DNA from: Promethearchaeota archaeon | GTDB taxonomy: Archaea; Asgardarchaeota; Lokiarchaeia; Sigyniarchaeales; SOKP01 | DNA: 64,000 nt | Assembly (NCBI GenBank): GCA_016839555.1 | Contig: JAEOUA010000012.1 | Location: 32,001-96,000 of the forward strand | Direction: 5' to 3' | Shown: positions 19,996 to 33,254 of the stretch, piece by piece | How the letters are laid out: each line of letters starts with the position of its first letter | How positions within the stretch are numbered: position 1 is the stretch's first letter | The notes under the pieces: model-generated | Seen by the model: only the letters and a program-made list of their open reading frames with translations | What the model was told of the DNA's origin: nothing | Databases searched by the model: none | Program-made: the position numbers and the translations under genes

Positions 19996-20577
19996 TTAAA
20001 ATTCTAAAAAACCAGGGTCATCAAATAAATCTTCTATATCTTTCTTCTTTTTGATCCCCGTTTCTTCGTGCTCTGAAAACAAACTATCCTCATCTGTTTT
20101 AATACCTGATTCTAATTCGCTAGTTTCTAATTCAAGTAAAGCATCCTTCTCCAAGCTTTTATATTTGCTACTTTTTTCTTTCCATTCTTGTATCTCGTCC
20201 ATATCATAATCTCCCTCATCTAAAAGTTGCGCGGCTTTTACTCTACAAAGATCCGATAAGATTGAAAACGCAAATGCCAACTCTCCCCACTCTTTGTTCT
20301 CTTTTAATTTATTGATTCGCTTTTTTAACCGCTGAATCTCTTGCTCAGCATAATATATATCGATAAAATCTCCAAAAGCATCCACAGGTTCGGAAATTGA
20401 ATTAATTAACACTTCTTTTTCTAAACCACAATTTCCACACTTAACTGTGGCAAAACCTCCCTTCTCTCGTAGATTCTCTACTTTAACTGATTTTTCCCCG
20501 CATTGGGGGCATGTAAAAATTTTTGGGAGTTTTTTAACTCTCCGATAAGTGGTTTGTTTTCGTTTACGACGCCCCAT
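19996..20577 (-). CDS. elf1: Transcription elongation factor Elf1 with long C-terminal extension
   Basis: MGRRKRK...LPKIFTCPQC...CGNCG...EPVDAFGDFID zinc ribbon; about 110 extra helical/acidic residues. Confidence 0.88.
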   Translation of the reverse strand: MGRRKRKQTTYRRVKKLPKIFTCPQCGEKSVKVENLREKGGFATVKCGNCGLEKEVLINSISEPVDAFGDFIDIYYAEQEIQRLKKRINKLKENKEWGELAFAFSILSDLCRVKAAQLLDEGDYDMDEIQEWKEKSSKYKSLEKDALLELETSELESGIKTDEDSLFSEHEETGIKKKKDIEDLFDDPGFLEF

Positions 20578-20781: not shown

Positions 20782-21888
20782 TTGATAATAGTCATGGAGC
20801 ATAATAGTTTATCCTTAGAATATGATCGGAATTTAATCATTAGGATCCTTGAAGATATCAATATGCGATATATAATCCTTTTTCTCTATATCATCAGAAA
20901 TGATTTATTTAGAGATTTGAAAGACCCCAAGATTATTGAATCTTATAATAGGGTATTAGCATTGGATGAGATTTATAAAGGGAATATTATCACATTTTGG
21001 GAAAAGGAGTTCACAAATATAGCGATAGATCTTGGTCTATTTAAAAATATTAGAAGTATAAGGGAGTTTGAGCAGAAAGATCAAGATTTAATCATTAAAT
21101 TTGGAGAAAATACAATAACTGTGGAAGGAGATACAATTTCAGTTCCCGCGGATACGCTCCACTTAATGATCACCAAAAAATTTAAATTCCTCACAAAAAG
21201 AAATTTTAATATAGCTCTCACTCAGCTGAAAGGTGTAAGGTGCGAATATAATGGAATGATTCATCCTTTTATTTATCAGATTGGAGAGGAGGATTATACC
21301 TTATCCGACGATTTATATTATATTTTAGATCAATTTGGTAATATTTATCAAGCAATGAAAATAGAAAATACAATTGAAGTATTCTATGAGAAAATAAAAG
21401 AGATATCAGACAAGCTAATTGAATTTATAGCTATTTTTGATCTAGCTTTAAATAGTAAACAAGCGATAAAAAAAATAAATCAGGCAATAGAAGAAAATAA
21501 AGATATAATTGAACAATTAAAAGAAGAAAACATCTCTTTATCAGATAAATTTGAATATGAAAATCTCGATAAATCTAAACCCATTTTTAAAGATTGGCAT
21601 TCTCGACTAATCCAATTACTACAATTTCGCTATAGAATAGATAATATAGAGCAAGAGGTAATCAAGTTAAGAAATTATTATTCTGGGTCTGAAAAAAAGT
21701 ATAATTATTTAGATTATATCGAAAAAGTGTCTTTTAATGAAGATGATATTGTAAATAATATTAGAAATGATCTGCTTGAAGCTCGGAATAAATTAATTGA
21801 TATAAATGATATTATTAAAAAACTAAATAAAAAAGAAATTAAGCTTTTAAATTTAGATTATGAAAGATATCTTATTGAAAGCAGCTAA
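20782..21888 (+). CDS. Hypothetical protein with coiled-coil C-terminus
   Basis: Long ORF; start may be ATG at 20794. Confidence 0.7.
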   Translation: MIIVMEHNSLSLEYDRNLIIRILEDINMRYIILFLYIIRNDLFRDLKDPKIIESYNRVLALDEIYKGNIITFWEKEFTNIAIDLGLFKNIRSIREFEQKDQDLIIKFGENTITVEGDTISVPADTLHLMITKKFKFLTKRNFNIALTQLKGVRCEYNGMIHPFIYQIGEEDYTLSDDLYYILDQFGNIYQAMKIENTIEVFYEKIKEISDKLIEFIAIFDLALNSKQAIKKINQAIEENKDIIEQLKEENISLSDKFEYENLDKSKPIFKDWHSRLIQLLQFRYRIDNIEQEVIKLRNYYSGSEKKYNYLDYIEKVSFNEDDIVNNIRNDLLEARNKLIDINDIIKKLNKKEIKLLNLDYERYLIESS

Positions 21889-22051
21889 CTAATAAAATGA
21901 AAACTACATTATTTAATATTGAGAGTGTTTTATCAGAAGGGTACTTTTCACAATTAAACGTAAATTTTTTTGGAACGGATTATTTTTATGTAACAACTTA
22001 TTTTAATATAATTAATTTTTTAAAATATTCAATTAATTAAGGTGTGCTCTA

Positions 22052-23029
22052 GTGAAATGTCCGTCATGTGATATTGAAATGAATCAACTTGTTGATGGGA
22101 TTTTTGAATGCCCCAAATGTAAAAAAATCATCAGAGAAAAAAGAGAAGAGGCAGAAAAGGGAAAAGAAAAAAAGAAAATAATCGGAGAGCTTTTAGATGG
22201 AGTTTACTTTCATAACAATTTTTCAATAAATCAACAATATGAGATGGTAGAATCGGGTATTTTAATTAATAAGACGGATACTAGAGCCTTTGGGGCTTTA
22301 ATTTGTCATAGTGCATATTTAGAAAATGAAAAGTATATCAGATTATCTTGGTGGAAAAAATCGTTCTATCGACATGGGGGTATGATAAAAATATACGAAA
22401 AAGAGGTCTTAAAGAACCTTATCAAAGCTTTAGAAAAAATATATGATAATTTTGATGAATTTTGGATATTTAAAGGAAAATTTAGAGAAAATCAAACTAA
22501 AAGCGAGGAAGATATTTTAAAAGAGAAAAAATTAGACCTTATCAAATTTAGAATTATTGAAAATCGTACGTGTCCAAACTGCCAAAAGAAAATGAATAAA
22601 AATAAATCGCATTATGAATGCCCATATTGTGGAGAAATTGTTATTTTGGAAGGTTATAATCAACCAATTTTTAATATAGCTCCCGCGGATTTAAAATTAA
22701 ATTTTCAAGGAAACTTTCCTATCAATTATTATCTCCCAATAAGCGGAATTACCATAAAATGGCTTATGGGAGAGTGGAAAGCCCTTGTTGTGATCTATTC
22801 CAAAGATAATCCTAACAAAAAATGGCTTCGATTTTATTGGTGGGTCCGAGATCTTAAAAATATTATGAAATATGGGACACGTAGATTTGCAGAGGATAAT
22901 CAACTTGGATGGCAAGCTAAAAAAGGCTCTGGAACGACAAACATATATAATAAAGAATCTATCAAACCTTTAATTGAAGCATTAAAAATTTTAGCTAAAG
23001 AATTAAATTGGAATATTAAAGAAAATTAA
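22052..23029 (+). CDS. Internally duplicated (zinc ribbon + PC4/YdbC-like) protein
   Basis: CPSC/CPKC and CPNC/CPYC ribbons, each followed by a YIRLSWW / WLRFYWW...IY.KE..K.LI.AL unit. Confidence 0.55.
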   Translation: MKCPSCDIEMNQLVDGIFECPKCKKIIREKREEAEKGKEKKKIIGELLDGVYFHNNFSINQQYEMVESGILINKTDTRAFGALICHSAYLENEKYIRLSWWKKSFYRHGGMIKIYEKEVLKNLIKALEKIYDNFDEFWIFKGKFRENQTKSEEDILKEKKLDLIKFRIIENRTCPNCQKKMNKNKSHYECPYCGEIVILEGYNQPIFNIAPADLKLNFQGNFPINYYLPISGITIKWLMGEWKALVVIYSKDNPNKKWLRFYWWVRDLKNIMKYGTRRFAEDNQLGWQAKKGSGTTNIYNKESIKPLIEALKILAKELNWNIKEN

Positions 23030-23044
23030 TTGGGATGAATTGAG

Positions 23045-24184
23045 TTGGAAAATAGCAAAAATCCTACATGGAAAAAATTATTAGGAGATTTTATTCAAGG
23101 GTTGGATCGGGCGATTCACTATTTAGAAGAACGAGATGTTGAGAGAATTCCCGGCGCCAGAGAAGCTCTAATACGTAGATTGGAAAATATGCATACTCAT
23201 TTTCCAAAAAATAATGGAGAGATTTTCATAAAAGCGATCAATGATAAAATCCAAAATGCATTTTTCCCTAATACTAAAAATTTTGCTGAAGCTTTTAAAA
23301 AAATCTTAAAATCCCGAACTCATGAGCAAGATTTTATAATTAATGAATTAATCAATGGATTTGTATCGTCTAAGGCTAAAGCTATAACATCTGAAACACA
23401 AGTGCCAATAATAGATCGAATGGTGGAGGCATTTAGTAGTCGAAATGATTTTCATATTGTAGACCACCAATTTTATGCTATGTTCGGTGATCCTAATAAG
23501 CCTCGAAAATATGTGAAAAAAAAATTAGAAGAATTAGTATCCCTATTTGGACTTGTTTCAAAAGAATTGGTTGTTGAAAAGGATAAAAGGAGGAGCGAAA
23601 GAAAAGTCTATACCTTTTATACTTTTCCTGATGAAATTTTAGCTATTCTTGAAGAAAAATACATTATTATTGATGAAGAACTGGGCTATGCATACGTTTC
23701 TGAAGAATTTGACAGAAACGTGTTTATTTGCATGTTTCTTGCAAATATTGCAATACATCGGGACAATTTAGAAGAGATTGGTGGAGAGTATACGGTCAAT
23801 GGAATTTCCGCAATATTTGCCTTAATTTTATTATTAAGTTTCATGCCAAAAATAAGAGTAGATGAAAATAATCCCATATTGCGGGATCCTTCTTTTAATG
23901 AAAATAATATGAGTGTTATTCCTAAGTCTTGGATGATGAAAAAAGTATTAGATAAACTTTTTGAACCATTAATTAAAATAATCGCCTACAGGCTTGGGGG
24001 CGGATTATGGTTATCAAAGATAATTGATTCTGAAATAAATAGAAAAATTCATAATCAAATACGATTTCTCCTTAAGGATGTTAACCGCTGGATATTAGGC
24101 GAGCTGGTCCGTATAGAAATACCAATCTTCGTTGAGATTTCCAATATATTCCAAGAAATTATCATAGGAACAGAAACAGAATAA
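23045..24184 (+). CDS. Hypothetical protein (379 aa)
   Basis: Long ORF tightly packed in the cluster. Confidence 0.7.
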   Translation: MENSKNPTWKKLLGDFIQGLDRAIHYLEERDVERIPGAREALIRRLENMHTHFPKNNGEIFIKAINDKIQNAFFPNTKNFAEAFKKILKSRTHEQDFIINELINGFVSSKAKAITSETQVPIIDRMVEAFSSRNDFHIVDHQFYAMFGDPNKPRKYVKKKLEELVSLFGLVSKELVVEKDKRRSERKVYTFYTFPDEILAILEEKYIIIDEELGYAYVSEEFDRNVFICMFLANIAIHRDNLEEIGGEYTVNGISAIFALILLLSFMPKIRVDENNPILRDPSFNENNMSVIPKSWMMKKVLDKLFEPLIKIIAYRLGGGLWLSKIIDSEINRKIHNQIRFLLKDVNRWILGELVRIEIPIFVEISNIFQEIIIGTETE

Positions 24185-24202
24185 TTAAAATGAAAAATTA
24201 AG

Positions 24203-25480
24203 GTGTTAAAATTGAGATTAGAGAAATGGACTGATATTTTACCAAGGTACCAGACATTTATTAGCCATATGAAGCCGATTTTGCGAGAAACTAGAAGGAT
24301 TATTGAAGATCTGGATGCTGATTTATTATATGATACTGAAGTCCTAGATAAAATTCGTGAGGAGGAGGAAAGAAGGAATATCCGTAAGGTAAGAGCTTTA
24401 TCAGAATTTTCAGCAATGTATAGATCAAATGTCTATGAATTAATGAAAGATTTTATCACAAAATATAGAGATCGTATTTCACTTATAGATATTAAAGATT
24501 ATATCATCGATTTTCTTCAAGAATCCATAGAGGCACTTACAATTTTACGTAATATTACAAATCCAGATCAAAAAGATCTAGAGCAAACATATTTATATAC
24601 ATTAGTTAAATTTCTTGAAAAAATCTTATTCCCAAAAGGAAATAGTATTAATGTGATATATGAAAAATTATTAGTACACACTCCTGAATATTATGAATCG
24701 CAAAGACATTTATTAAAAACTCATACTCATTATAGAGAAGACTTAGAGCATTCAGATTTTTTTACAGTTCCTGCAATATCACCAAAAGTATACCAGATCA
24801 TTAATAATATCACCTCTTTTTTTAATTTAGATCCTAATTATGGACCTCTTCCAGAGAATAAAAATCATGAAATTCCTATGATTTTAAAGAATGATGTGTT
24901 TTTACCATATATTGATTCAATCGCTAAAGCTGAAGAGGAAGCTATTAAAAGTATTGCTGAAAGAATAGGTCTTCGGGTGATTGATGATATATTTTTGGCT
25001 CCAAAAAAAGAATTTATAGATCTCTTATTAGATAACAATTTTTTAAGAGAAAAAAAGCAGTCAGATGGAACAGTAAGGTATATACCGCAATTTAGTAATG
25101 AAACATTAATATTATATTATTTAGCATTTGCTTCAAGAAGAAGAGGTTTTTTATCTAAAGAATTAATAAATTGGATTACAATTAACTTTGCGTTTTTAGT
25201 TTATATGGGAATACTAAAATGGAAATTGTCAGATGAAAATATTTTTTATTCCATTTTTAAAGACCTCCAAACAAATGAAAAAGTATTACCTTATCTAATG
25301 AAGTTAATTTGTTTTCCCAATTATTTAGGGCTCGATAAAACAAAAATAAGGGACTCTCCACAGTATAGAAAAGAAATTTTCAATTTTATAGGAGCACAAA
25401 TAGATAATATTCAAAACCTTGTTGAAAACGTAGGGCAATATTGTTATGAAAAATTTGAAAAAGGAAAAAAAAATAAATAA
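24203..25480 (+). CDS. Hypothetical protein (425 aa)
   Basis: Long helical ORF tightly packed in the cluster. Confidence 0.7.
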   Translation: MLKLRLEKWTDILPRYQTFISHMKPILRETRRIIEDLDADLLYDTEVLDKIREEEERRNIRKVRALSEFSAMYRSNVYELMKDFITKYRDRISLIDIKDYIIDFLQESIEALTILRNITNPDQKDLEQTYLYTLVKFLEKILFPKGNSINVIYEKLLVHTPEYYESQRHLLKTHTHYREDLEHSDFFTVPAISPKVYQIINNITSFFNLDPNYGPLPENKNHEIPMILKNDVFLPYIDSIAKAEEEAIKSIAERIGLRVIDDIFLAPKKEFIDLLLDNNFLREKKQSDGTVRYIPQFSNETLILYYLAFASRRRGFLSKELINWITINFAFLVYMGILKWKLSDENIFYSIFKDLQTNEKVLPYLMKLICFPNYLGLDKTKIRDSPQYRKEIFNFIGAQIDNIQNLVENVGQYCYEKFEKGKKNK

Positions 25481-25502
25481 TATAAAAAAGAGATGAAATA
25501 AT

Positions 25503-26579
25503 ATTACATATACGGATGAAGAAATTAAGGAAAGATTAAGCAAATATGGCGCAGTATATTTACCAAATGACGTTAAAGAAGATGTAAATGATATAAAGGG
25601 TAACGAATTTAAAAAAGAAAGATTAGATGATTTTTTTAAAGCTCTTACCAGTTATAAGGATATTTCAGAGCAGTTGAAAAAAACTAAACTGTCTCCTAGC
25701 TTAACAGTATTATTATATGGACCTCCAGGAACAGGTAAAACCTCTTTAACAAGAGCGTTTTCCAAAAAATATAAAATCCCTATGTGTGTTGTTGAGTCTG
25801 ATAGGCTGGTTTCTCCATTGTTAGGGGATACTATAAAAAATATACGAAATGTAGTAGAACTAGCGGCTGATGTGGCTAAAGAAAATGGTTCTTTTGTATT
25901 ATTTTTTGATGAGATAGATGCTATAGGCTCTGAGAGATCGAATATCCATGAAGTAGGAGAAATTAAAAGGGCTGTTATCTCCTTTTTACAAGTCATTGAT
26001 AAAGTTAATTATGAGGGGATTCCACTTGCTATTTTTGGAGCAACAAATCACCAACACCAGCTGGATTCTGCGATTTGGAGGCGTTTTACATTTCATTTGA
26101 ATTTTGATTTTCCTAATTATGAGTTAAGAAAAGAAATTATTGAATCTTTTTTAGAAAAAATAGAAAAAGCAGATATCGGTATAGATGATACTATATATAA
26201 AAGATTAGATAATGAATATAAGGAAATTAAAGAAATTCATAAAAATCTAGAGGCGAAATTGGGAAGAAACATTTCTGAATTTGAAGATAATTTATTATGG
26301 AATGAGATAGAAAAGAAAAAGCAATTAGAAGGATTTTTAAAATTAACACTTGGATATTCTGGCTCAGATATAGAAAGAGGAACTAGGGTAGCTTTATTTA
26401 AAGTAATTCAAACAGGTATCTTAACCTATAATATTTTTTATAATTCTTTAGAGTTAGTAGGGGGTACTGCCGTCCATGTTAAAAGACAAGACATTTTAAG
26501 CAATAATAGAAAATTAGGAACTAGATCCGAAAAATATAAAGCAAGCCGACCCAATACTTCTGGTCCTCCAGAATTATAA
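25503..26579 (+). CDS. Single-domain AAA ATPase (probable ATT start)
   Basis: GPPGTGKT, FFDEIDAIG, GATNH..LDSAIWRRF; frame is open upstream of the TTG at 25674 to a TGA at 25494; SD-like GAGATGA precedes ATT at 25503. Confidence 0.85.
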   Translation: MTYTDEEIKERLSKYGAVYLPNDVKEDVNDIKGNEFKKERLDDFFKALTSYKDISEQLKKTKLSPSLTVLLYGPPGTGKTSLTRAFSKKYKIPMCVVESDRLVSPLLGDTIKNIRNVVELAADVAKENGSFVLFFDEIDAIGSERSNIHEVGEIKRAVISFLQVIDKVNYEGIPLAIFGATNHQHQLDSAIWRRFTFHLNFDFPNYELRKEIIESFLEKIEKADIGIDDTIYKRLDNEYKEIKEIHKNLEAKLGRNISEFEDNLLWNEIEKKKQLEGFLKLTLGYSGSDIERGTRVALFKVIQTGILTYNIFYNSLELVGGTAVHVKRQDILSNNRKLGTRSEKYKASRPNTSGPPEL

Positions 26580-26617
26580 TATGAGAAAATATATTATTAA
26601 ATAAGAGGGATACATAT

Positions 26618-27649
26618 TTGGAAATAGAAATATTCGATCTTAACAAAATTAAAGAATTTTTTATTAATACAGAAGAATTAGAAGGAAAATTTGTTCAAAA
26701 TAAATCAAATTATGAAGATTTACAGAAATTTACAACAAATATTAAAAATATAGTAGAAAATAAAGAAATAATCGAAAAAATTGATAATATTTCTGAAAAA
26801 CTAAAAAAGATTTATACTCGCCTTCTTGACGTTTCCCAAATTAATTTAAAAAATTTAATCACCTCTCAAGACAAATTAACTAAAACTTATAAACAAGTGC
26901 ATATAGATAGATTAGAAAATAGTGATATTAATAAGCAAAAAGCAAAAAAAATTGGTTTATCTTTTATAAAGAATAAAAATATTTCGAAAGTAATTAATAA
27001 GATCTCTTTCATACCCTCTATAAATATAAGTCAGTGGTCAGATATTCTTGATTCTTTAAATGATAATGATATCTTCATGAAGATTATTAAAAATGTGAAC
27101 AATTATTATCAATTACTTTTAGAAAAAAAATTTAAGGCGGAACTCAGGAAAATTCCAGAGGATATTCAACAAACCTTAATTAACGATTTTAAAAAAGCCT
27201 TTTTTGAAGACGCAAACCTTAGTTTTAAAAATTTTATAAGAAATATCGAGTCTAAATTATCTGAAGATGAATTAACACAAAGGAAAAATCTAATTGAAAA
27301 AACCAAAAAAAGAGAAGAATTAGCTTCTCTAAAAAAACAACAACAAGAACAAAAAAGCACTTTTGAAGATTATTTTAAATACCCTGAGAAAGAATTTCAA
27401 AGAATAAGAAGAAAAAAACAAAGAAAGAGTTTATCTGAAATTGACCAAGAACCTAAAAAAAAAAAGTACATTGATGATGATAAAAAAGAGAAAATAGAGA
27501 AATTTAAATCTAAATTTGAAGATTCCTTTGATAAAATATACCTAAATCAAAAACAAGATTCTAGAGATCCTCTCGACTTAATTCGAAAAAGAAAGAAAAA
27601 GAAAGAAGAGGAATATAAAGATTTTATAGATAAGCTCAAAAAGGAATAG
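26618..27649 (+). CDS. Hypothetical charged coiled-coil protein
   Basis: K/E-rich helical ORF within the cluster. Confidence 0.7.
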   Translation: MEIEIFDLNKIKEFFINTEELEGKFVQNKSNYEDLQKFTTNIKNIVENKEIIEKIDNISEKLKKIYTRLLDVSQINLKNLITSQDKLTKTYKQVHIDRLENSDINKQKAKKIGLSFIKNKNISKVINKISFIPSINISQWSDILDSLNDNDIFMKIIKNVNNYYQLLLEKKFKAELRKIPEDIQQTLINDFKKAFFEDANLSFKNFIRNIESKLSEDELTQRKNLIEKTKKREELASLKKQQQEQKSTFEDYFKYPEKEFQRIRRKKQRKSLSEIDQEPKKKKYIDDDKKEKIEKFKSKFEDSFDKIYLNQKQDSRDPLDLIRKRKKKKEEEYKDFIDKLKKE

Positions 27650-27661
27650 AAGTGATAAAAG

Positions 27662-29263
27662 ATTTCAGATGAAAATTTAGAATTTTTTATAAAAGGAAAA
27701 AAACTCACAATAGAGAATCAATTCAATTTAGTTTTAGGAGATTTTTCGATTAATGAACTGGAACACTATAAAAAATATGAAACCTTTTCTACCTATGATG
27801 ATTTTAATCTAATCTCTATAAATCAATTGTCAAAATTTATCCAACTCATTAATAATTCCTATAATGAGATTGAGAAAGTTAATCATCTTTTAACCTTTTT
27901 AGAATCTTTTAAAACAATTTCTAGCAAGAATATTATCATATTAAACCATTTTAAAAATGCTTTAGATTCACTAAACTCTACTCTTAAATTTATATCTTTA
28001 AAAAATAAACTAAAGTCATTAAAGCGAGAATTAACATTTTCAGAAATCAAATATAAATCTAGTAAAATATCTGCAAACAGAAATCTTATAAAAAAATTAA
28101 AGCAAAGTATTGCGAAAAACAAAAAAGAATTAGATTCTATAAAGCAAGACTATTTTAATATTAGAAATCAGAGAAATGAGATATTAAAAGCAATAAATAA
28201 TTATCAAGGTAAAGTTGATGAATTGAATCAAGAAAAAAAGCTAAAATTCAACGAAATTAATGAAATAATTAGAACTACTGAAACACCTCCATTAAATAAT
28301 AAAAAAGAGTTTTTACTTGGTCTAGATTTATCAAATGATGAAAAAATGAAGAAATTAAAACAAGAGGCAAAAAGTATTAATAATGATATAAAAGATTTTA
28401 AATCTAAGATAGCTGATAAGAAAGGAAAATTGAGTGATATTGAACCAAAATTTCAAATCTATGAACAACAATATACTTCATCAAAAAATACTATTGAAAA
28501 AAATGAAACTCAGATAAATGAGATTCAAGCAGAAATGGAAAATCTCATACAACCAAAAGAAGAAATAGAATTTAATAATTCCAACGTGAAAGAATTTGAT
28601 ATGATTAGATCTCCTGAAATTCTTGAAGATGAAATTGATAAAATTAAAATGCAATTAGAAAAAGAAAAGAAATCTAATCAATTGCTTAATAAAAATATTA
28701 TATCCTGTTTAAATTCAATAGATAAGAATCTATCGCAAATATTATCACAAATAAACGAAAATGAAGGAAATCTGACATTTTCAATAGAACAAGAAATTTT
28801 ATCATCAACTATAAAGCAATTTCGAAGATTTGAATCATTGTTAACGAAAATAGAACAAATAATGAATTATTTATTGCGTGAAATAAATTTGAACTTGGAT
28901 TTGAAAATTGCTATTACAGAAGAAAGCAATGAATTTTTTCTACATCCCATATTTTCTCGAAACAAGGAGCAAAATTTAAAATTTGATGAATTAACTACTC
29001 CAGAAAAAATATTTTATGTGGTCGTGTTTTATATTGCTTTAATGATTATTTTAAATAATACATTGATCTTGTTTTCAAATTTATTTCTTCATCAAGACTA
29101 TAATAAACGAGGTTCTTTGTTTAGAACACTTAAAAAAATGATTCCAGCTATTAAAAGCAATAGCAAATTGAAAGATTTCAAATTTATTTTTGTAATTTCG
29201 AATCTTGAAATGAAAAAAAAAATTGATAATATAAATATAATTACATTTGAAAAGGGCTTATAA
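27662..29263 (+). CDS. SMC/Rad50-like coiled-coil protein with degenerate ATPase head (probable ATT start)
   Basis: Extended N-terminus has FNLVLGDFS (Walker A lost); long coiled coil; C-terminal FDELTTPEK...LILFSNL...FIFVIS aligns with the LSGGE / Walker B / H-loop positions. Confidence 0.6.
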   Translation: MSDENLEFFIKGKKLTIENQFNLVLGDFSINELEHYKKYETFSTYDDFNLISINQLSKFIQLINNSYNEIEKVNHLLTFLESFKTISSKNIIILNHFKNALDSLNSTLKFISLKNKLKSLKRELTFSEIKYKSSKISANRNLIKKLKQSIAKNKKELDSIKQDYFNIRNQRNEILKAINNYQGKVDELNQEKKLKFNEINEIIRTTETPPLNNKKEFLLGLDLSNDEKMKKLKQEAKSINNDIKDFKSKIADKKGKLSDIEPKFQIYEQQYTSSKNTIEKNETQINEIQAEMENLIQPKEEIEFNNSNVKEFDMIRSPEILEDEIDKIKMQLEKEKKSNQLLNKNIISCLNSIDKNLSQILSQINENEGNLTFSIEQEILSSTIKQFRRFESLLTKIEQIMNYLLREINLNLDLKIAITEESNEFFLHPIFSRNKEQNLKFDELTTPEKIFYVVVFYIALMIILNNTLILFSNLFLHQDYNKRGSLFRTLKKMIPAIKSNSKLKDFKFIFVISNLEMKKKIDNINIITFEKGL

Positions 29264-29265
29264 AA

Positions 29266-29775
29266 ATGGAAATAGATAATAGATTATATCAAAACACAGT
29301 AAGAAAAATAACAAGACTTATTCTTACAAATGAACAAAAAATGATACGAGAGGAAGACTTAATTAATATTTGTGAAGAATCCTTAGACTTTGATCAAATC
29401 ATTAATGAAATCTATAATAATTTGAAAAAAGTAGGATTAGAGTTAATAGTATCAACCTATCTCGAACAAAGATATTATATCTTAACTTCTGAAGGGATAG
29501 ATGATAATATTACTCCAAGTCAATATGGTACCTTAGCATTAATCCTTGCCTTAAGCAAAGAGGTTAATGATAATCTAAAATTAAGCGACGCAAAAAAGAT
29601 TTTCTCAAAAGTATGGAATGATGTTGAATTTTTAATTGAAAATGACTATATTCAAAAAATTTCGATTAACGATCTTGAAATCATCAAGATAACACCTCTC
29701 GGGAAAGCATTAATGAAAAACGTTATTCAAGATTTGAAATTAAAAAATTTACTCGAAGTGTTTAAAAAAGAATAA
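29266..29775 (+). CDS. Tandem winged-helix KITE-like protein (MAGE/Nse3/MksE-like)
   Basis: LKKVGLELI...YYIL...GTLALILAL...LIENDYI...ITPLG pattern; 2 nt downstream of the SMC-like gene. Confidence 0.6.
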   Translation: MEIDNRLYQNTVRKITRLILTNEQKMIREEDLINICEESLDFDQIINEIYNNLKKVGLELIVSTYLEQRYYILTSEGIDDNITPSQYGTLALILALSKEVNDNLKLSDAKKIFSKVWNDVEFLIENDYIQKISINDLEIIKITPLGKALMKNVIQDLKLKNLLEVFKKE

Positions 29776-29803: not shown

Positions 29804-30217
29804 TTATTCTAAATCCATTTTAAATTGCTCAAAAATTTTTTTCACTCGCTCCGCGGAGGGCCCTGATCCCCTTACTCCATTCTCATCTACCACAATTTTC
29901 CCATTCAAAATAGATATTATACCCTGTTCTTCGTTATATTTTACATGCCCCTTCGAAAAAATGGTTGCAATTCTGTCTGCTAAAGCTACCATCGGAAATG
30001 GTTCCTCTTCTAAGGTAATATATTGATAATACTTTTCGCTGATTAAAACTTTTGGAAAGGATTGACCCTTTTCATTTTTTACGTCTGTAAGGATTAAGCT
30101 TGAATTATTCGAAACTCCTTTTAATTGCCCTACGAAATATCCATTGCTCACATGAACTTTAACGATTTGTTCCATAAATTTTGCTAATTCCGTGTTAAAC
30201 TCTCTTTCAATACTCAT
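29804..30217 (-). CDS. Sm-like archaeal protein with C-terminal domain (SmAP3-like)
   Basis: Sm fold (VKVHVSNG.FVGQLKGV...LILTDV) plus C-terminal GVRGSGPSAERV domain. Confidence 0.8.
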   Translation of the reverse strand: MSIEREFNTELAKFMEQIVKVHVSNGYFVGQLKGVSNNSSLILTDVKNEKGQSFPKVLISEKYYQYITLEEEPFPMVALADRIATIFSKGHVKYNEEQGIISILNGKIVVDENGVRGSGPSAERVKKIFEQFKMDLE

Positions 30218-31082: not shown

Positions 31083-32006
31083 TTAGAAAATTAAGTTTTG
31101 ATATTTTACTTTAAATTTAAAGACAATATAAGAACCAAAAATACCCCCAAGATCTGGCAAGTAAATGACAAAATACAATAAGTCTTGATAGATTGCCCAA
31201 TACAGTAATGCGGGAACAAGTCTAAAAAGGATCAGTAATATGAGAATAATCCTACCTTTCATTCGAATTGGAATGAAAAACAATAAGAAGGTCATTTCTT
31301 GATTTAAAGAAGAAAATATCAGGAAACTAATAACGCCCATTAAGCCTCCATAAGCCATCCCACCAAAGATGAACGTGATTTTTATTGGATCATAATAAAA
31401 TAATTGAAGTGGCAAGAAAATGAGTGTAAAAAAGACGCCAGACATAAAGGCACAAAATAGATACAATCCAAATAAAAATCGACTTCCAAAGCGTAATTCC
31501 ATAATCTTTATGATATTATAAAACAATAACACTAAAATTAATAGAAAAAATATTCCAAAATACGATTCAGAATAGTTGATAAAAAGTGAGGTGAAAAAGG
31601 TCCATATATAATAGCTGAAATAACTGTAATAGCTCAAACACACATATTGAGGTATGATTAAGGCTACAATCGACATGATAAAAATTGTAAAAATTAAAAA
31701 AGTCGAGACGGAACCCATGGGTCGTTCTTCCATGGTTCTTTCAAATATATCTTGCGCTCTTTTTTGTTGTTTATCTTGTCGCCTTAAATATCTTTTTATT
31801 TTTTTTGGCTCTTCAGTAGACAAGAATTCATTTGCTTGCTGCTTCGGTCTTCTTGTACCTCTTGGAACGGTAGGAATGTGTTTTTTTTCAAAAGTACACT
31901 CGTGATTTTCAGGGAGCCTATGCTTTTTACAATAAATCCCTCCACAATATTTACATCTAAAGGGAAGATATCCCATTTCCTCTCCACAATATTCACAATG
32001 AGCCAC
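31083..32006 (-). CDS. AN1 zinc finger fused to a rhomboid-like membrane domain (catalytic dyad apparently lost)
   Basis: PFRCKYCGGIYCKKHRLPENHEC; WTFFTSLF, ELRFGSRF; GASG replaced by GMAYG and HLGG replaced by DLGG. Confidence 0.75.
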   Translation of the reverse strand: MAHCEYCGEEMGYLPFRCKYCGGIYCKKHRLPENHECTFEKKHIPTVPRGTRRPKQQANEFLSTEEPKKIKRYLRRQDKQQKRAQDIFERTMEERPMGSVSTFLIFTIFIMSIVALIIPQYVCLSYYSYFSYYIWTFFTSLFINYSESYFGIFFLLILVLLFYNIIKIMELRFGSRFLFGLYLFCAFMSGVFFTLIFLPLQLFYYDPIKITFIFGGMAYGGLMGVISFLIFSSLNQEMTFLLFFIPIRMKGRIILILLILFRLVPALLYWAIYQDLLYFVIYLPDLGGIFGSYIVFKFKVKYQNLIF

Positions 32007-32204
32007 TCTTGGTTACCCGAATATATTCTTTACAAAATAGTTAAAAAATTAATTTCTTATTTTGATTATTAAAATTCAGATCAATTAATGATAATAGATA
32101 ATAGTTTTTAGTTTTTACTCTTATGAAAAACCTTATTTCTAATTTTTCTTAATCTTATGATATAAATGAATCTAAATTTAAAAGCGTTATAAAAATGGAT
32201 GAAA

Positions 32205-33254
32205 TTAAATAATTTGATAATAAGGGCTAATATCTGTAGGTAGATAAATTAATACATAATTTCCAATTAGCAACACAATCATTAATGAGGCAAGCAAAAT
32301 GTATACAGCTTTGTTCCATTTTAAAATTGCTTGACCATCAAGGATACCTACGGGAATTAAATTAAATGCTCCGAGCATGAAATTAATAGATGCTGAAATA
32401 CTAATAAAGTAATTAATTGGATAAATGGGGATGATAAATGATATTATTAGAAGAATAGTGCCATATATAAGATTTATTATAGGACCCGCAGCTTTACATA
32501 ATCCCGTCTTTCTATCAATAGTATCTAAACCTAATACAACGACCGCACCAGGCAGCGCGAATGCAGGAAGTGCACGAGCAGAGGCGATTAAAGAAATAAT
32601 TCCCATAGCGAGTCCCATTACAGTGATCATCATCCCATATTTTAATAGCCGAAATTTGCTCTGGAGACCAAAATGTATAGCTACTTGCCGATGCCCCAGC
32701 TCATGGAACAAAAATGCGGTGGTATATATCCCCGCTATCATAAAGATTATCCAACCATACCCAAGTTCATTTAATTGTGCCTGATTTTGAGGATTATAAA
32801 ATCCTAATAATCCGATACTATAAATTAAGAGAGCTCCTATAAGAAAATGCAACAGTTCAGATTTATATGGAAAGAGAATCCCTTTAAATTCTATACCCGA
32901 ATCTTCCTGAAAAGCATTTGCTGGAATATTTCGTTCCCCTCGATACCAGATAAAACTTCCATCTGTTCTGGCTCCGCTTCCTGAATCAGAGACTGAGGGT
33001 GATTGATATGAGGCTTGACTTTCTTCAGATGCGAAAATTTCTCTATGTTCTGTACCTCTTGTTGGTGGAGATTCAGAACCCCCAATGTATGCACTAGAAA
33101 TATCTAATCCCAAAGCCGATTCCTCTTTTTTGATATTACACTCATGATCTATTGGATTTCTATGTAGATGGCAATAATAATGCCCACAATCTTCACAATA
33201 ATAGATTTCGGAAGATTCCATTCCGCAATGATAACATTTTCTCATATATTCCAC
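32205..33254 (-). CDS. AN1 zinc finger fused to site-2 (M50) metalloprotease
   Basis: CEDCGHYYCHLHR..DHEC; HELGH; AGP; FNLIPVGILDG. Confidence 0.85.
   Translation of the reverse strand: MEYMRKCYHCGMESSEIYYCEDCGHYYCHLHRNPIDHECNIKKEESALGLDISSAYIGGSESPPTRGTEHREIFASEESQASYQSPSVSDSGSGARTDGSFIWYRGERNIPANAFQEDSGIEFKGILFPYKSELLHFLIGALLIYSIGLLGFYNPQNQAQLNELGYGWIIFMIAGIYTTAFLFHELGHRQVAIHFGLQSKFRLLKYGMMITVMGLAMGIISLIASARALPAFALPGAVVVLGLDTIDRKTGLCKAAGPIINLIYGTILLIISFIIPIYPINYFISISASINFMLGAFNLIPVGILDGQAILKWNKAVYILLASLMIVLLIGNYVLIYLPTDISPYYQII

Follow-up and report, generated by a model that had tools for sequence, protein, structure and literature searches.

We analysed a stretch of 64 000 nucleotides (nt) from a Promethearchaeota archaeon (assembly GCA_016839555.1, contig JAEOUA010000012.1, positions 32 001 to 96 000 of the forward strand), hereafter the window. 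Our subject is a cluster of eight genes at positions 20782–29775 of the window, designated g1 to g8, which encodes an AAA+ ATPase (g5), a relative of the SMC (structural maintenance of chromosomes) and Rad50 proteins devoid of ATPase motifs (g7) and a protein of the kite type (g8). All eight open reading frames are co-oriented:

g1, 20782..21888, + strand, 368 amino acids (aa), or 364 aa from ATG 20794, family without assignment
g2, 22052..23029, + strand, 325 aa, two repeats of a zinc ribbon and a beta-rich part
g3, 23045..24184, + strand, 379 aa, orphan family
g4, 24203..25480, + strand, 425 aa, orphan family, distant paralogue of g3
g5, 25503..26579, + strand, ~358 aa, AAA+ ATPase of the classical clade
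g6, 26618..27649, + strand, 343 aa, helical, kleisin-like in behaviour
g7, 27662..29263, + strand, 533 aa, SMC/Rad50-like
g8, 29266..29775, + strand, 169 aa, kite (tandem winged helix)

With the starts proposed here, g1 and g2 are separated by 163 nt and the following gaps measure 15, 18, 22, 38, 12 and 2 nt, in agreement with a first-pass annotation, made from the sequence alone, that had pointed out the common orientation and the tight spacing from g2 onward. The G+C content of the cluster is the same as that of its surroundings (~29% in the window).

The structure of g7 was predicted with AlphaFold2 (AF2) from an alignment of 15 orthologues, which was also used to read its motifs. The model (mean per-residue confidence, pLDDT, 84.7) is a split head of SMC/Rad50 type on a short coiled coil. 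From the N-terminus it comprises three strands, two helices, the coiled coil (residues 66–208 and 226–409) and a C-terminal alpha/beta lobe. The antiparallel arms, ~140 residues each, end at an apex formed by a 16-residue low-confidence loop without cysteine (residues 209–224, positions 28283–28330); neither a hinge nor a CxxC zinc hook is present there, and no SMC_hinge match was found in Pfam. The top 30 Foldseek matches were nearly all Rad50, Smc, Smc5/6, MukB, LmuB and JetC structures, with E-values from 1e-7 to 1e-3. In structural alignments with VIA-align, proteins consisting of coiled coil only likewise reached Z-scores of 11–12 against g7, and only matches spanning the head were counted. 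Among these were head chains of Smc5/6 (Z 12–13) and the Rad50 head, which gave the cleanest superposition (Z 11.1, root mean square deviation 4.2 A, 200 residues across both lobes). The protein thus has the ABC-type head, assembled from N- and C-terminal halves joined by an antiparallel coiled coil, that defines SMC and Rad50 proteins, as the first-pass annotation had proposed for the gene at 27662. The Pfam SMC_N model does not match g7, and a profile search of the PDB returned coiled-coil noise only.

The positions at which the ATPase motifs would be expected are occupied as follows:

Walker A position, 27728–27757, LVLGDFSINE, degenerate
Signature position, 28991–29008, LTTPEK, degenerate
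Walker B position, 29060–29086, ILFSNLF, degenerate
D-loop position, 29102–29116, NKRGS, degenerate

None of Walker A (GxxGxGK[ST]), the signature (LSGG), Walker B (hhhhDE) and the H-loop histidine is present in any of the 15 orthologues. At these sites the family carries LILGxF, LTTPEK, IFSNLF, NKRGS and ISN, with several residues invariant. Because all the motifs are replaced, g7 has, to judge from its sequence, lost ATP binding and hydrolysis, as had been suspected at the first pass; since other residues at the same places are invariant, the former head–head surface (LTTPEK, NKRGS) is still under selection.

An hhalign comparison of g7 with three long SMC proteins encoded in related clusters of distant Asgard archaea (see below) gave a probability of 84% (E-value 7e-6, 198 columns). 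Two of these three match the Pfam models SMC_N and AAA_23, while the third, from locus L048, does not. No hhalign match was seen to either of the genome's own two SMCs or to the neighbour of the second, and a word-based search for longer proteins with the C-terminal lobe of g7 found none, which is weak evidence.

The product of g8, which follows g7 at a distance of 2 nt, was modelled by AF2 (pLDDT 84.6) with the order H-E-H-H-E-E occurring twice, i.e. as two winged helices of ~80 residues each; this tandem arrangement is the hallmark of kites. Foldseek returned MAGE-A3, Nse3, Nse1 and ScpB as top matches. All full-length structural matches found with VIA-align were kites: Nse3 (Z 11.4, 161 of the 169 residues), MAGE-A3 (10.3), Nse1 (9.7), JetB (8.3) and ScpB (8.1). 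In the Atlas shape search two unnamed Asgard clusters came first, followed by Nse1, ScpB and DUF4194/MksE clusters. The tandem winged-helix fold, akin to MAGE, Nse3 and MksE, that had been read from the letters at 29266 is therefore present. The similarity lies in shape: Pfam models of MAGE, SMC_Nse1, SMC_ScpB and MksE gave no match at E-values up to 1, a scan of the genome with the MAGE model found nothing at the g8 locus, hhalign gave no match to the genome's own ScpB or to the protein that follows the second SMC, and a profile search of the PDB returned nothing useful. Against the terminal small proteins of the distant clusters, hmmsearch, run on 29 proteins, gave E-values of 1e-3 and 0.02, and hhalign gave 0.086, not significant, for those of 166–172 aa. 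A motif [IV][TS]P[LIV]GK, seen by eye, is common to g8 and the distant proteins of 166–172 aa. The protein is acidic (isoelectric point, pI, 4.9). An assignment of g8 to ESCRT-II was considered and rejected: Foldseek matches of Vps22 type were weaker than those to kites, and the neighbouring genes are SMC-like.

The third component of an SMC complex, the kleisin, has a candidate in g6. We modelled g7 and g8 together with residues 1–296 of g6, scoring g6 alone as the partner and using three controls. The interface score (ipSAE) of g6 was 0.71 (0.71, 0.72 and 0.63 in the runs) against 0.27 for the best control, and it was 0.26 with g7 replaced; the mark set for this score is reached by 58 of 80 solved complexes and by 2 of 110 mismatched pairs. 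Agreement between the runs is at least 41% of contacts, and the partner has a pLDDT of at least 63. In the model, residues 1–127 of g6 (26618–26998) contact the neck of g7 (residues 80–116 and 347–389), the head strands 416–429 and g8, the expected error being ~1.2 A for the contacts with residues 80–116 and 347–389. In known complexes the N-terminal domain of the kleisin sits on the SMC neck; the predicted placement of the g6 N-terminus on the g7 neck and on g8 resembles that of a kleisin, so that the suggestion that one of the unassigned genes might encode the kleisin now points to g6. The protein is helical and fast-evolving, with a conserved basic motif and tail (20 aligned sequences from two families); in orthologues from the second family the basic tail comes shortly after a conserved helix. 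No model in Pfam, NCBIfam or PADLOC matches g6, those of ScpA, Rad21 and Nse4 included, and no hhalign match was found to the kleisin-like and triple-winged-helix-like proteins of the distant clusters. Profile searches of the PDB with the kleisin-like proteins returned noise only.

The ATPase of the cluster is g5, a clear AAA+ protein (Pfam AAA, 4e-26). The motifs GPPGTGKT, FFDEIDA, GATNH and WRRF are invariant among 11 sequences, those of distant clusters included, so that Walker A, Walker B, sensor-1 and the second region of homology with its arginine fingers, the features of a classical AAA+ protein, are all in place. The pore loop is non-aromatic (LLG). The best PDB sequence matches are p97/Cdc48 modules (1e-33), whereas the best-scoring family models for the AAA module are those of IetA/IteA (PADLOC IetA, 1e-57; NCBIfam IteA, 178 bits, 2.6e-52). 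The earlier description of g5 as an intact, IetA-like ATPase is upheld in this respect, at the level of hidden Markov models (Pfam, PADLOC, NCBIfam) only: the NCBIfam score is about one third of the curated cut-off of 510 bits, 97–115 N-terminal positions of the models remain unmatched, and Pfam finds no peptidase family in the cluster, so that g5 does not qualify as a member of an IetAS system. A literature search on IetA yielded nothing about its mechanism.

The first four genes encode orphans. In g1, for which Pfam, PADLOC and NCBIfam offer no family, an N-terminal motif is conserved and the C-terminal half resembles a coiled coil. The motif recurs in g1-like proteins of the distant clusters at loci L043, L045 and L048. 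The basic protein g2 (pI 9.2) is built from a unit that occurs twice: a CxxC...CxxC zinc ribbon and, after it, a beta-rich domain with a helix at its end. Its eight cysteines are all invariant and the repeat structure is visible in the alignment, although the Pfam matches to zinc ribbons are below the cut-off. An earlier description as a duplicated zinc-ribbon/PC4-like protein therefore stands as regards the duplicated zinc ribbon and is unconfirmed as regards PC4: the ends of the repeats resemble PC4 by eye without support from any tool, no Pfam PC4 match was seen at E-values up to 1, and the PDB profile search returned no PC4 chain. The Atlas feature search with the second repeat was uninformative, giving unnamed archaeal clusters only (0.77).

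The best conserved gene of the cluster is g3, with a median identity of 77% and no relative in Pfam or the PDB. Its profile detects the g3-like proteins of distant clusters at 1e-62 to 8e-80 and the g4-like ones at 4e-6; in hhalign, g3 and g4 match each other at E 0.004 over 121 columns. By these profile comparisons the two are distant paralogues. An exhaustive profile search with g4 among 1.84 billion proteins found 39 representatives; the named relatives are all called 'hypothetical protein' and come from metagenome-assembled genomes (MAGs) of Loki/Promethearchaeota. The PDB holds no relative of g4, and the Atlas feature search was uninformative. One metagenomic contig (L047, 50–6629) carries two tandem g3-like/g4-like pairs (359, 711, 347 and 706 aa) that adjoin no AAA or SMC gene; a g3/g4 pair thus also exists on its own.

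The conservation of the cluster was assessed together with that of its two flanking genes, both outside the system:

Elf1-type zinc-ribbon protein, 19996..20577, − strand, left flank, divergent (Pfam Zn_ribbon_Elf1, 5e-19)
Lsm-like protein, 29804..30217, − strand, right flank, convergent (Pfam Lsm_C, 4e-12)

By tblastn, every further related locus for which the flank sufficed (55 of 55) has the eight genes in the same order, bordered by Elf1 and Lsm; three of these loci carry insertions. Chance open reading frames would not be kept in this way. Nor are the genes scattered in relatives; scattering had been named at the first pass as an outcome that would refute the proposal. In 12 loci from other genera of the same family the eight genes are also colinear, except for three with insertions or a displaced half. 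In a second family, f2, five of six loci have the cluster, with a shorter g6 and with g7 too diverged for tblastn; by this means g7 was detected in the window's family, f1 (22 of 24 genomes sampled), and the 16 genomes sampled from the order's other families gave no match with that query. Profiles of g8 and g3 were each found in 64 of 68 genomes of f1 and in 6 of 7 of f2, while 226 other Asgard genomes gave at most one weak match. The same five f1/f2 genomes, two of them 99–100% complete, are devoid of both g3 and g8, and across the 301 sampled genomes these two genes are present or missing together. Median identity is 60% for g1, 70–77% for g3–g5 (slowest g3 and g4, 74–77%) and 32–40% for g6 and g7. 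The cluster is therefore single-copy, nearly universal in two families and occasionally lost whole, and on these grounds looks like a housekeeping rather than a defence system. Insertions within the cluster were seen in single genomes (loci L012, L015/L057, L020, L061 and L127); the insert in genome G016 carries a second Elf1-like gene. The Elf1 homologue of the window has 193 aa, of which the zinc-ribbon model spans residues 2–76 only, and its long C-terminal extension is conserved in relatives.

The distant representatives of g4 come from other Asgard MAGs and lead to clusters of a similar frame with long SMC genes. At L043 the order is g2, a g1-like gene, g3, g4, AAA, a 1071-aa SMC, a 325-aa winged-helix protein and a further gene; at L045/L046 it is a g1-like gene, g3, g4, AAA, a 1050-aa SMC and then proteins of 298, 320 and 166 aa. 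The SMCs of both have intact motifs (GKNGTGKS, SSGQK, IDEFD) and a hinge-like middle. At L048 the same frame holds a 1034-aa SMC-like protein with dead motifs, followed by proteins of 182 and 172 aa. The AAA-then-SMC adjacency thus recurs in three distant lineages with different flanks. It had been supposed that the separate AAA ATPase may replace the dead SMC motor; this is not what we find, as the same AAA, together with g1-, g3- and g4-like genes, precedes full-length SMCs with intact motifs, and the partnership predates the loss of the SMC ATPase. At L048 (1–3455), ~4 kb upstream of the cluster and with three unrelated genes between, there is a 1380-aa S8 (subtilisin-type) peptidase with zinc ribbons. 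The known partner of IetA is a protease; given the three intervening unrelated genes, the vicinity of this peptidase may be due to chance.

The cluster-linked SMC is a third paralogue, since the L043 genome also holds orthologues of both the canonical SMC and the second hinge-bearing SMC. Both of these lie elsewhere in the window's genome as well:

Canonical operon of smc (1481 aa), scpA and scpB, G000 contig C5, L042 2390–8559, − strand
Second, hinge-bearing SMC, 1147 aa, G000 contig C7, L041 4038–9449, − strand, between proteins of 427 and 227 aa without Pfam family

The 427-aa protein before the second SMC, which by its position might be a kleisin, has a weak hhalign match to the g5 family (E 0.009, 43 N-terminal columns). 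The ScpA of the canonical operon has an N-terminal SAP/HeH-like stretch with weak scores.

From these observations we think it probable that the cluster encodes a derived, lineage-specific complex of SMC type found in two families, belonging to one order, of Loki-type Asgard archaea. The simplest history is that a third SMC–kleisin–kite system, apart from the canonical Smc-ScpAB and the SMC5/6-related operons of the same genome, had already been joined to the AAA+ ATPase, to the paralogous g3 and g4, to g1 and to the zinc-ribbon protein g2, and that in the Loki-type families its SMC then lost the ATPase, the hinge and half of its arms. What g7 has kept, at about half of the original length, is the head fold and the neck, along with new invariant residues at the former head–head interface, and the protein would act as a nucleotide-independent scaffold. 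On its neck the N-terminal helices of g6 would hold the kite g8 in the manner of a kleisin, and contacts with nucleic acid, presumably DNA, could come from the kite and from two basic elements, g2 and the tail of g6. The sole source of energy would be the AAA+ ring of g5, which may remodel a subunit and in this way bring about loading, release or recycling of the complex, instead of driving loop extrusion. As a tentative extension, one could think of a third Asgard SMC lineage whose built-in loader or unloader consists of a dedicated AAA+ ATPase of the classical clade and a heterodimer of g3 and g4, the Loki-type SMC being by now a passive scaffold driven by the AAA+ protein.

Several points weigh against the derived SMC-type complex. 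The eight proteins show no match to a DNA-binding family. The complex model can pass by resemblance to solved SMC–kleisin complexes; only the first 127 residues of g6 are confidently placed in it, and neither the model nor the alignment of 20 sequences revealed a C-terminal winged-helix domain in g6. The other points concern the unity of the cluster, and agree with the idea of two independent systems, an AAA+ module (g1–g5) and a mini-SMC module (g6–g8), lying side by side and staying neighbours through slow rearrangement. As Elf1 and Lsm, although unrelated to the cluster, flank it with the same constancy (55/55 loci), gene order alone is no proof of one operon within the two families. Insertions of 1.8–8.8 kb are tolerated at g1|g2, g2|g3, g3|g4 and g5|g6, the last of these, in G016, separating the presumed modules. 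A closed f2 genome keeps a diverged, partly inverted g1–g5 with no g7 and a remnant only of g8, which means that the two halves of the cluster can separate, and the g3-like/g4-like pairs of L047 have neither AAA nor SMC beside them. The genes g3–g5 evolve slowly and g6 and g7 fast, at the identities given above. Two unconnected systems are hard to reconcile with the AAA-then-SMC adjacency in three distant lineages with different flanks and with the co-presence or co-absence of g3 and g8 in all 301 genomes, and we consider such an arrangement unlikely.

Other functions can be imagined for a connected cluster. By analogy with the adaptors of MAGE–E3 ligase complexes and with Cdc48, the cluster could be a protein-handling machine in which g8, a MAGE-like adaptor on a coiled-coil scaffold, feeds clients to an AAA+ unfoldase; the shape of g8 is closest to MAGE/Nse3, g5 belongs to the classical unfoldase clade, g7 is apparently unable, by its motifs, to use ATP, and Pfam detects no DNA-binding family. 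Set against this, g7 descends from a bona fide hinge-bearing SMC, g2, g6 and g7 are basic, the pore loop of g5 is without the aromatic residue usual in threading unfoldases, and Pfam finds no ubiquitin-like or ligase gene in the cluster; we would give this possibility little credence. Still less can be said for defence against plasmids or viruses by a system resembling Wadjet, Lamassu or IetAS, in which the SMC-like g7 would sense DNA and the AAA protein g5 would serve as effector. It is true that PADLOC IetA is the best match of g5 (1e-57), that JetC and LmuB are among the Foldseek matches of g7 and their models match it weakly, and that the cluster is lost in a few species. Yet the JetC and LmuB model matches span the coiled coil only, g5 scores 178 bits where IteA requires 510, no nuclease, protease or other effector family was found in the eight proteins by Pfam, PADLOC or NCBIfam, the G+C content matches the surroundings, and the cluster is present in a single copy at one syntenic place in 64/68 and 6/7 genomes, unlike patchy defence islands. 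Of the proposal made at the first pass, an undescribed SMC-type system for chromosome organisation or segregation, or against plasmids, we thus retain a conserved SMC–kite variant of which we found no description in the literature, while an anti-plasmid role is very improbable.

Canonical and SMC5/6-related SMC operons have been described in Asgard archaea (Yoshinaga and Inagaki 2021, PMC8665677; van Hooff et al., preprint 10.1101/2024.01.07.573240), and the latter work also mentions a third kite, restricted to Asgard archaea, that has an SMC and a kleisin of its own. An AAA partner or a dead short SMC appears in neither of these two papers, and we found no paper on the present cluster. It shares with the SMC5/6-related operons and with eukaryotic Smc5/6-Nse1-Nse3-Nse4 an SMC-type head with a coiled coil and the adjacency of genes; the shape of g8 is closest to Nse3/MAGE and Nse1, and g6 is likewise modelled on the neck and the kite. 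The long relatives at L043 and L045 come with an intact hinge-bearing SMC, two different winged-helix proteins and, by eye, a kleisin-like protein. The present cluster differs in that g7 is of half length and without hinge, Walker A, signature, Walker B and H-loop, in that g6, g7 and g8 have no similarity at Pfam level, in its obligatory tie to an AAA+ ATPase and four orphan proteins, and in its occurrence in addition to an SMC5/6-related operon of the same genome.

Neighbouring genes for the triad of SMC, kleisin and kite are also found in Smc-ScpAB, MukBEF and Wadjet JetABC(D), and ScpB, MukE and JetB are among the structural matches of g8. The SMCs of these three systems are active ATPases with hinges, and Wadjet has a nuclease, JetD. 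A canonical smc-scpA-scpB operon sits elsewhere in the same genome, as listed above. The cluster cannot be counted as Wadjet, for PADLOC yields weak JetC matches in the coiled coil only and no JetA, JetB or JetD; that no JetD nuclease had been recognised earlier is in line with our PADLOC and Pfam results. While the models of IetA/IteA score best for the AAA module of g5, the cluster differs from IetAS in having no adjacent protease of IetS type and in its housekeeping-like spread. In size, and in having a head with a short coiled coil, g7 is like Rad50, LmuB and archaea-specific SMC-related proteins; it differs from this group in the lack of the CxxC zinc hook, in the lack of a partner of Mre11 or LmuA type and in its dead motifs. 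We conclude that the cluster is a real, conserved and undescribed variant of the SMC–kleisin–kite architecture, the mechanism being one that we infer.

To our knowledge, SMC complexes have been regarded as working solely by way of an ATPase cycle of their own. A derivative of the SMC–kleisin–kite type that is conserved without the SMC ATPase, and with a long-coupled AAA+ motor, would be a natural experiment as to which parts matter without loop extrusion. Should g7 be a passive scaffold driven by an AAA+ ring, an SMC complex could function without ATP hydrolysis by SMC. If the AAA+ protein with g3/g4 serves as loader or unloader, the two would represent a kind of SMC regulator for which nothing comparable has been described. 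The cluster sits in the closest prokaryotic relatives of eukaryotes, and its Nse3/MAGE-like kite bears on the origin of the Smc5/6 and MAGE families and of their accessory factors. The series from intact long SMC through dead long SMC to dead short SMC offers comparative material for experiments.

The initiation codons of the cluster deserve a comment. For g5 there is no ATG, GTG or TTG before 25674, and yet the conserved frame is open from 25497; its start codon appears to be ATT 25503, where orthologues have ATG or TTG at the same codon. For g7 the start appears to be ATT 27662, the coordinate used in the first-pass annotation, and not the first canonical TTG at 27827: the 55 residues between them are conserved in the alignment and form N-terminal strands of the head in the AF2 model. 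Both genes thus appear to begin at ATT; in both, residues that canonical starts would cut off are conserved and folded. The two ATT codons lie 7–9 nt downstream of a Shine-Dalgarno-like site (GTGA/GATGA; GAGATGA at g5). Orthologues of g5 and g7 mostly have ATT, ATA or ATC as the start codon; some genomes have ATG or TTG there. An ATG start is found only in g8 and probably in g1, for which ATG 20794 is a more likely start than 20782; the remaining genes, other than those with ATT, use GTG, TTG, GTG and TTG. Weak start codons may set the ratios of the subunits. A scan for sigma-70 promoters gave results at the level of shuffled sequence, and the model is not applicable to archaea.

Beyond the Lsm-like gene, at 31083–33254 on the − strand, there are two adjoining genes, each encoding an N-terminal AN1-type zinc finger, and the second of them has a weak Peptidase_M50 match near the C-terminus.

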